A stretch of 64,000 bases of DNA from positions 414,170 through 478,169 of the forward strand of contig CP097973.1 in NCBI GenBank assembly GCA_023703655.1, given 5' to 3'. How positions within the stretch are numbered: the first letter of the stretch is position 1; each line of letters starts with the position of its first letter. The notes under the pieces were generated by a model. That model saw only the letters and a program-made list of their open reading frames with translations. It made no database searches and was not told where the DNA came from. A program made the translations under genes and the position numbers. Source of the DNA: SAR86 cluster bacterium. GTDB taxonomy: Bacteria > Pseudomonadota > Gammaproteobacteria > Magnimaribacterales > D2472. Below are positions 24,383-24,500 of the stretch, piece by piece.

Positions 24383-24500
24383 AGAAAACAAATGTAGCCA
24401 CCATGTAGCCATGAGAATTGACTAGAAAAGCTGTAAGCTCGTTTTTAAATGTAGCCATATTTGTAGCCATAATGTAGCCACGGAGTGCGATTTGTAGCCA
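24383..24500 (+). repeat. Array of six same-orientation TGTAGCCA(T/C) motifs
   Basis: Copies start at 24383, 24394, 24450, 24462, 24473 and 24493. Neighbour spacings within clusters are 11, 12 and 11 bp. Confidence 0.85.

Follow-up and report, generated by a model that had tools for sequence, protein, structure and literature searches.

Phased 8-bp repeats at both ends of an integrase-less tRNA-Glu islet of a marine gammaproteobacterium are probable arm-type sites of a tyrosine integrase encoded by sister elements

The window (the whole stretch of 64,000 nucleotides analysed here) comes from the streamlined genome of a marine, probably SAR86-like gammaproteobacterium, G000 (1.33 Mb, 33.8% GC). 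It carries a tRNA-Glu(UUC) gene, the last 17 nt of which recur downstream as an exact copy, and four genes lie between the two copies. According to Pfam, none of these four open reading frames encodes a recombinase. The features of the locus, with the evidence for each in brackets, are the following:

24263..24338, + strand: tRNA-Glu(UUC), the integration target (ARAGORN, Rfam tRNA)
24322-24338, + strand: attL core, the last 17 nt of tRNA-Glu (core repeat)
24350..24372, + strand: element-borne GC hairpin followed by a T-run, GCCCCTTTAAATAGGGGTTTT (sequence, left-arm alignment from four genomes)
24393..24411, + strand: repeats 1 and 2 of the putative left (P') arm, TGTAGCCA-CCA-TGTAGCCA, 11-bp phase (+55 and +66 from the core end)
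24450..24480, + strand: repeats 3 to 5 of the putative left arm, phases of 12 and 11 bp (+112, +124 and +135)
24493..24500, + strand: repeat 6 of the putative left arm, its final conserved block (+155)
24590..25369, + strand: cargo gene 1, LpxH-like metallophosphoesterase, PlcP-like (Pfam Metallophos; weak NCBIfam LpxH match)
25369..26394, + strand: cargo gene 2, GT4 glycosyltransferase (Pfam)
26447..26821, + strand: cargo gene 3, LMW-PTP/ArsC-type arsenate reductase (Pfam LMWPc; NCBIfam ars_reduc below the cut-off)
26826..27458, + strand: cargo gene 4, MIP-family channel, aquaglyceroporin-like (Pfam MIP)
27472..27502, + strand: repeats of the putative right (P) arm, starting at 27472 and 27495, 23 bp apart (word search)
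27552..27568, + strand: attR core, 17 nt identical to the 3' end of tRNA-Glu (core repeat)
27594-27607, + strand: native terminator hairpin followed by a T-run, 3' of attR (sequence, terminator scan)

The islet thus delimited covers positions 24339-27568 (3.2 kb), with both cores and both arms intact, and the native flank, ATTTCTT..., begins directly after the attR core. Empty tRNA-Glu sites were found in four genomes of the same genus (G061, G063, G064 and G067). In these, tRNA-Glu runs straight into ATTTCTTGGAAAACCCTATAGAT and a hairpin, that is, into the sequence that follows attR in the window. Since the empty sites match the flank after attR, the islet is a genuine site-specific insertion into tRNA-Glu with a 17-bp duplication of the att core. 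The element-borne hairpin at 24350..24372, which is kept in every left arm aligned (four genomes), probably replaces the native terminator of tRNA-Glu. An Rfam search of the arms returned the tRNA as the sole match and no other structured RNA, and a promoter and terminator scan gave nothing above the shuffle background except the native terminator 3' of attR.

An exact word search located eight copies of TGTAGCCA in the 64-kb window, every one of them on the + strand and within the islet, with starts at 24393, 24404, 24450, 24462, 24473, 24493, 27472 and 27495. The preliminary description of this DNA had also listed eight copies in one orientation; the number, the orientation and six of the starts were correct, and the first two starts (given as 24383 and 24394) were each 10 bp too low. 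In 100 dinucleotide shuffles of the window the word occurred 1.57 times on average and five times at most, and none of the shuffles reached eight. The left copies are spaced by 11, (46), 12, 11 and (20) bp, which bears out the neighbour spacings of 11, 12 and 11 bp reported earlier, and the right pair by 23 bp; the starts of this pair lie 81 and 58 bp upstream of the 16-nt att core copy at 27553. As had been noticed before, the longer word TGTAGCCATGTATA is common to the copies at 24493 and 27472, and the earlier impression that the window holds no further exact copies was likewise right. A genome-wide count, which the preliminary description had proposed as a check, gave 34 exact copies in the whole genome (1.326 Mb) against 16 of a reversed control word, and their sole cluster, also when one mismatch is allowed, is the islet.

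In a scan of 139 genomes of the family, the tandem motif was present in none but G000, G024, G027, G045 and G131, and in these five it always lies beside the tRNA-Glu att core. The 19-mer of the left arm, TGTAGCCACCATGTAGCCA, recurs in G027, G045 and G131 and in several metagenome and assembly loci, and the first left-arm copy in G024 reads TATAGCCA. The left arm of G024 (~165 bp) is 93% identical to that of the window, compared with ~69% for nearby core genes; the similarity stops right after the last repeat, beyond which the cargo is different. Similarity between elements thus ends at left-arm repeat 6. Scanning metagenomes with the pattern “TGTAGCCA, 35-65 nt, att core” retrieved 14 marine contigs, and the related contigs derive from TARA, GOS and single-cell assemblies. 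Together with loci encoding an identical PlcP-like protein, these contigs made up a set of 14 distinct left and 16 distinct right arms, across which the register is kept both on the left (+55, +66, +112, +124, +135 and +155 from the core end) and on the right (-82 and -59 from the core start). The right pair alone stands in identical register in more than 10 other islets. A comparison with the boundaries of homologous islets, also suggested in the preliminary description, places the repeats at the att sites of those islets, in fixed register. Islets armed with TGTAGCCA range from 1.3 to 5 kb and carry unrelated cargo, including hydrolases, lipoproteins, a TetR-like gene and a CoA-transferase-like gene, and a change of the first cargo gene leaves the left array in place at the att site. 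Judged by these alignments, the repeats belong to the att sites and not to the cargo. Their copy number differs between loci (6, 5, 4 or 2). Left arms are present in G131 and G045 with no attR within 9-12 kb, which indicates that some copies of the islet have decayed.

In the public assembly collection, 298 blocks contain a protein identical to the PlcP-like protein of the window. In contig L294 the cargo is 99.8% identical to that of the window and the flanking core genes 68.5%, and in contig L295 the respective values are 97.2% and 64.8%. In both contigs another islet comes first in the tandem array and this one second; it thus occupies the first or the second position of the array, depending on the genome. 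These identities document a recent horizontal spread, in which the cassette appears to have moved between distantly related marine bacteria. The att core was found in 92 genomes of the family and is present twice in 11 of them; in seven of these 11, both copies lie on one contig, 0.7-8.4 kb apart. A variant of the islet without arsC and aqp is present in G027. In contig L290, the plcP islet is followed by an att-bounded island (L290:9234-12653) with a GGGTCCA word, the cargo of which comprises a DNA methylase, an HNH nuclease and an SLFN/AlbA_2 protein (SLFN_AlbA_2), so that defence genes ride on the same cassette system. A 1.6-kb variant was seen in GOS contig AACY020155303 (L282), where tRNA-Glu is joined directly to the arsC-aqp half, without the left array, plcP and the glycosyltransferase gene; the variant arose either by deletion or as a chimera of the assembly.

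A candidate for the enzyme acting on these sites is encoded by larger elements at the same target. Contigs L279, L285, L286 and L289 contain a ~7-kb element with a 442-aa tyrosine integrase at its right end (positions 4155-5483 of the - strand in L286, located by its Pfam domains), which consists of the Pfam domains DUF6538, Phage_int_SAM_5 and Phage_integrase and matches the phrog_1 integrase family. The element uses the same 17-bp core and the same TGTAGCCA word as the window islet, and four copies of the word (-131, -105, -94 and -71) lie between the integrase gene and the att core. The start of the gene, ATGGCTACA, is the reverse complement of TGTAGCCAT, and the start codon overlaps one of the repeats, which suggests that the integrase may be autoregulated. 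Another left arm lies directly after the att core, an arrangement that corresponds to a tandem array or a circle; the ends of L289 overlap by 231 bp at 97.8% identity, which fits a circle and a tandem repeat alike. In an AlphaFold model of the integrase (mean pLDDT 80), a predicted N-terminal three-strand sheet with a long helix precedes the SAM-like core-binding and catalytic domains, and the full-length lambda Int chains 5J0N_G and 1Z1B_A align with the protein over ~440 columns. Many marine homologues exist; one of them, P0034, is labelled “Gammaproteobacteria bacterium” at NCBI. No recombination directionality factor was identified. The scans of IMG/VR returned neither a contig with the right-arm-plus-core pattern nor a close relative of the integrase, and thus lend no support to a phage or a satellite as the vehicle.

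G000 has no match to the marine tRNA-Glu integrase, and the cognate enzyme was not found in G024, G027, G045 or G131, the four other genomes of the family with these arms. Only two of the 139 family genomes match it, and one of the matches is a fragment. Since the integrase is absent from G000 and from four relatives with the same arms, the window islet may currently be stranded. G000 itself encodes two Xer-like recombinases and one 494-aa integrase in a tRNA-Phe island only. We considered these as mobilisers and rejected them; the tRNA-Phe integrase has arm repeats of its own that differ from those of the islet (AAGTCATCA). Because the resident repertoire is limited to the two Xer-like proteins and the unrelated tRNA-Phe integrase, an integrase acting in trans is the most economical account of the spread, and the islet was probably mobilised in this way. 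A C-terminal fragment of a marine-type integrase is present in G024 (G024:C8:646-846, L027/L305), with 72% identity over residues 372-442 and stop codons inside. It runs straight out of an att core copy, and the gene was apparently cut short precisely at the crossover core.

If the repeats are bound by the integrase, the repeat word may be expected to change along with the enzyme. Three marine homologues, 52-55% identical, are located at the same SpoU-tRNA-Glu locus with an identical core, and their arms carry other words: TGTTTCCA in L298, TGTACCYA in L299 and TGTGTCCA in L301, in each case on both arms. Within 16-21 kb, each word is nearly confined to the two arms, the tRNA-proximal and the integrase-proximal one. 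In G001 (L304), too, TGTACCYA lies next to the integrase gene. By all-against-all BLASTP (open reading frames of at least 45 aa, E<=1e-5), the four elements have nothing in common except the integrase. The first 70 residues of the integrase are 39-57% identical, compared with 59-79% for the rest of the protein, the N-terminus being the more diverged part, and the two closest integrases (73% identical) have arm words that are one base apart. Each of the four words, TGTAGCCA, TGTTTCCA, TGTACCYA and TGTGTCCA, thus goes with its own integrase subclade, and does so on both arms. This co-variation is what would be expected of arm-type sites co-evolving with the arm-binding domain of an integrase. 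Further words were found in integrase-less elements at tRNA-Glu, where the register is the same or closely similar: TGTAGTCA in the first islet of L294 and in islets of G014, G034, G038 and G050, GGGTCCA in the island that follows attR in L290, and TGAGTCCA in an islet of L295.

We therefore favour, with a probability of about 80%, the interpretation that the TGTAGCCA repeats are the arm-type sites (P' at attL and P at attR) of a heterobivalent tyrosine integrase of the lambda style, and that the islet is an integrase-less tRNA-Glu cassette served by the enzyme of the ~7-kb sister elements. An arm-type reading had been one of two offered in the preliminary description; it now has strong comparative support in the fixed register, in the integrase gene abutting the array and in the co-variation of word and integrase. 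On this interpretation, the islet would have been inserted into the 3' end of tRNA-Glu by site-specific recombination, with the 442-aa integrase supplied by a ~7-kb sister element and not by G000. The integrase would bridge arm and core, its N-domain contacting the 8-mers and its C-terminal domains the core, and an excisive complex would form only between an attL and an attR with a matching 8-mer. Such a requirement would allow one cassette to be cut from, or inserted into, a tandem array of elements that all have the same core.

The arms could instead be relics, i.e., former arm-type sites on the decayed and immobile remnant of a larger integrase-bearing element, with no present function. The five family genomes that have the tandem motif and no cognate integrase would agree with this, as would the left arms of G131, G045 and G123 that have no matching right end, the truncated integrase fragment abutting the att core in G024 and the variable number of repeats. 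However, more than 10 independent islets have retained both arms and both cores intact, in exact register, and cargo that is 97-99.8% identical is found in hosts with flanks of 65-68% identity, at varied positions of the array. Near-identical cargo between diverged flanks requires recent, precise att-to-att transfer without a resident integrase, and we consider loss of function by the arms of the window islet unlikely. It is still less probable that the repeats are iterons, or the sites of another element protein such as a replication initiator, an excisionase (RDF) or a partition protein. Phased direct repeats are typical of iterons and of RDF sites too, the ~7-kb element does encode a 455-aa protein with no assigned function (phrog_4756), and the overlapping ends of L289 are compatible with a circle. 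But the four elements with four repeat words have no open reading frame in common other than the integrase, the integrase-less islets retain the arms and have no protein in common at all, and the repeats lie on both sides of the crossover core at fixed distances, as arm sites do.

The other reading offered at the outset was a Pho-box-like operator. On this reading, or that of another transcriptional operator, an OmpR/PhoB-family regulator would bind the 11-bp-phased repeats and thereby govern plcP-agt during phosphate stress. Direct repeats with a period of 11-12 bp are indeed recognised by this family, and the period fits a Pho box, the left array lies 90-200 bp upstream of the PlcP-like gene, and G000 encodes one PhoB-like response regulator, which scores 248 bits and is thus below the 296-bit cut-off of TIGR02154. 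Yet no other tandem copy is present in G000, or in the 138 relatives outside tRNA-Glu att sites, and the enrichment upstream of pst and pho genes for which the preliminary description had proposed a test does not appear: the cluster is confined to the islet, and G000 has no Pfam match for PstS (PF12849) or PhoU (PF01895). The word itself is unlike CTGTCAT, and the three Pho-box-like matches of the E. coli type in the genome (two mismatches each) all lie outside the window. The array persists upstream of first genes that are unrelated to one another, and the word tracks the integrase and not the cargo. The right-hand copies have no downstream gene that they could regulate, a point already made against an operator in the preliminary description. 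With the absence of the tandem motif outside the islet this reading fails; we rejected it on the unique cluster, the att-bound array, the lack of PstS and PhoU matches and the lack of a nearby Pho box, and regard regulation of this kind as scarcely credible.

Arm-type sites of the lambda family are known from lambda itself (P1, P2 and P'1-3), with analogues for the integrases of P2, HP1, L5 and Tn916. As in lambda, a core equal to the target is flanked on each side, at a distance of tens of bp, by direct repeats of 8-10 bp, several of which follow one another in tandem with a period of roughly one helical turn. The gene for the integrase adjoins the P arm, and the integrase has, in the model, a separate small N-terminal domain of three strands and a helix. 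Unlike in lambda, this N-domain belongs to Pfam DUF6538 and not to a characterised family of arm-binding domains; the sites number eight instead of five, one site of the ~7-kb element overlaps the start codon of the integrase, and the window element carries no integrase and no identified Xis, IHF or Fis sites. The islets also resemble CIMEs and other integrase-less mobilisable islands in being flanked by att sites that look functional, in lacking a recombinase of their own and in accreting in tandem at one tRNA site, and they probably resemble them in being moved by the integrase of a sister element. They differ in being much smaller (0.7-5 kb), in having many arm words on one core and in the absence of conjugation or mobilisation genes anywhere in the tRNA-Glu system. 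Integron cassettes are similarly small, promoter-poor and diverse in cargo, are stacked at one site and depend on a tyrosine recombinase encoded outside them; the present islets have a duplicated tRNA core and double-stranded arm repeats in place of folded single-stranded attC, and a DUF6538-type integrase, not IntI (18.7 bits to the NCBIfam integron-integrase model). The tycheposons of Prochlorococcus target tRNA genes, form tandem arrays split by partial tRNAs, carry nutrient-stress cargo, including genes for phosphorus, and contain degenerate integrase fragments; arm-type sites are not mentioned for them (bioRxiv 10.1101/2020.12.28.424599). By that description, the two systems are alike in their tRNA-targeted tandem elements, streamlined marine hosts, nutrient cargo and integrase fragments, whereas our host is a gammaproteobacterium and most tRNA-Glu islets have no integrase or replication module. 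The tRNA-Glu system is a known kind of feature, here in a modular variant. A literature search found no published account of the TGTAGCCA motif as an integrase site, nor of the 19-mer.

We tentatively extend the interpretation, at somewhat worse than even odds, to a general arm code, in which small integrase-less cassettes on one 17-bp core would use at least seven words (TGTAGCCA, TGTAGTCA, TGTGTCCA, TGTTTCCA, TGTACCYA, GGGTCCA and TGAGTCCA; on both arms and in fixed register), each word belonging to its own DUF6538-integrase subclade, with cassettes captured selectively from mixed arrays. If this is true, a rare element that encodes an integrase could restrict its excision, capture and spreading to the cassettes of its own code, which would amount to integron-like gene shuffling with lambda-type arm recognition and would provide various genera with nutrient-stress genes such as plcP-agt and arsC-aqp. 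The anonymous repeat becomes a testable recognition code for the uncharacterised integrase N-domain DUF6538. Abundant, streamlined marine bacteria that are almost devoid of resident integrases could still swap small adaptive cassettes across genera, the one in the window combining phosphorus-sparing lipid remodelling genes with an arsenate-detoxification module. Matched pairs of integrase and 8-mer on one core are a natural set for studying the evolution of arm specificity and may serve as orthogonal recombination tools. For annotation, phased repeats beside tRNA genes offer a cheap marker of integrase-less islets that gene-based finders miss. As a separate observation, G000, a 92%-complete single contig, has no PstS or PhoU match, yet encodes the PhoB-like regulator and the mobile PlcP/Agt-like lipid-remodelling cassette.

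The exact 19-mer TGTAGCCACCATGTAGCCA is also found outside the marine group, where it offers an independent analogue in favour of arm-type sites. It occurs at more than 119 loci (L038-L156) of the collection of species-representative genomes, mostly in Burkholderiales, where about four would be expected by chance, as estimated from the size of the collection. In some 63 of these loci a tRNA gene of the same strand precedes the 19-mer by a short distance, mostly 57-60 bp and occasionally up to ~85 bp, and in about 40 the 19-mer lies 8-60 bp upstream of a divergent gene for an integrase of 440-490 aa. Both the word and its distance from the tRNA agree with the marine islets. The 19-mer marks both ends of islands in tRNA-Thr, His, Met, Lys, Phe, Ser, Asn and Ala genes. 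The Burkholderiales integrases associated with it carry an Arm-DNA-bind_3 N-domain and not DUF6538. The two N-domains showed no homology by BLASTP or hhalign, and only the catalytic region aligns. The identity of the shared 19-mer may reflect convergence or a very old shared origin. The 494-aa integrase of G000 is 26% identical to a Burkholderiales integrase linked to the TGTAGCCA 19-mer, over a 147-residue catalytic stretch only.

That integrase, which combines an Arm-DNA-bind_3 domain with a catalytic domain, is encoded at the far end of a 9.6-kb island in tRNA-Phe (G000:C1:1231290-1240900). The word AAGTCATCA is found at both inner edges of the island with 11-bp phasing (1231411, 1231422, 1240738, 1240779 and 1240790), and ~48 nt of the 3' part of the tRNA are duplicated at attR. 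This island is an analogue within G000 itself that speaks for the arm-type reading. Directly behind the left arm, a conserved GC-rich block of ~60 nt (GGCAGGAGTACCAGCCGGGTGGGG...TATATATCTAGTGG) is shared by several elements that differ in arm word and tRNA target: at ~11860-11950 of L024 (G131), in L298, L299, L294 and L308, and at G000:C1:1231510-1231580; it has no match in Rfam. At the far end of the window, the last 14 nt of tRNA-Gly(GCC) (63419-63494) recur three times, +17.3, +22.0 and +25.5 kb downstream, and thereby delimit a tandem array of three islets that reaches G000:C1:503064, beyond the window. The second islet of this array opens with TGTAGCACTTT twice in 11-bp phase, and the last ~400 bp before the third and the fourth att copies are duplicated.
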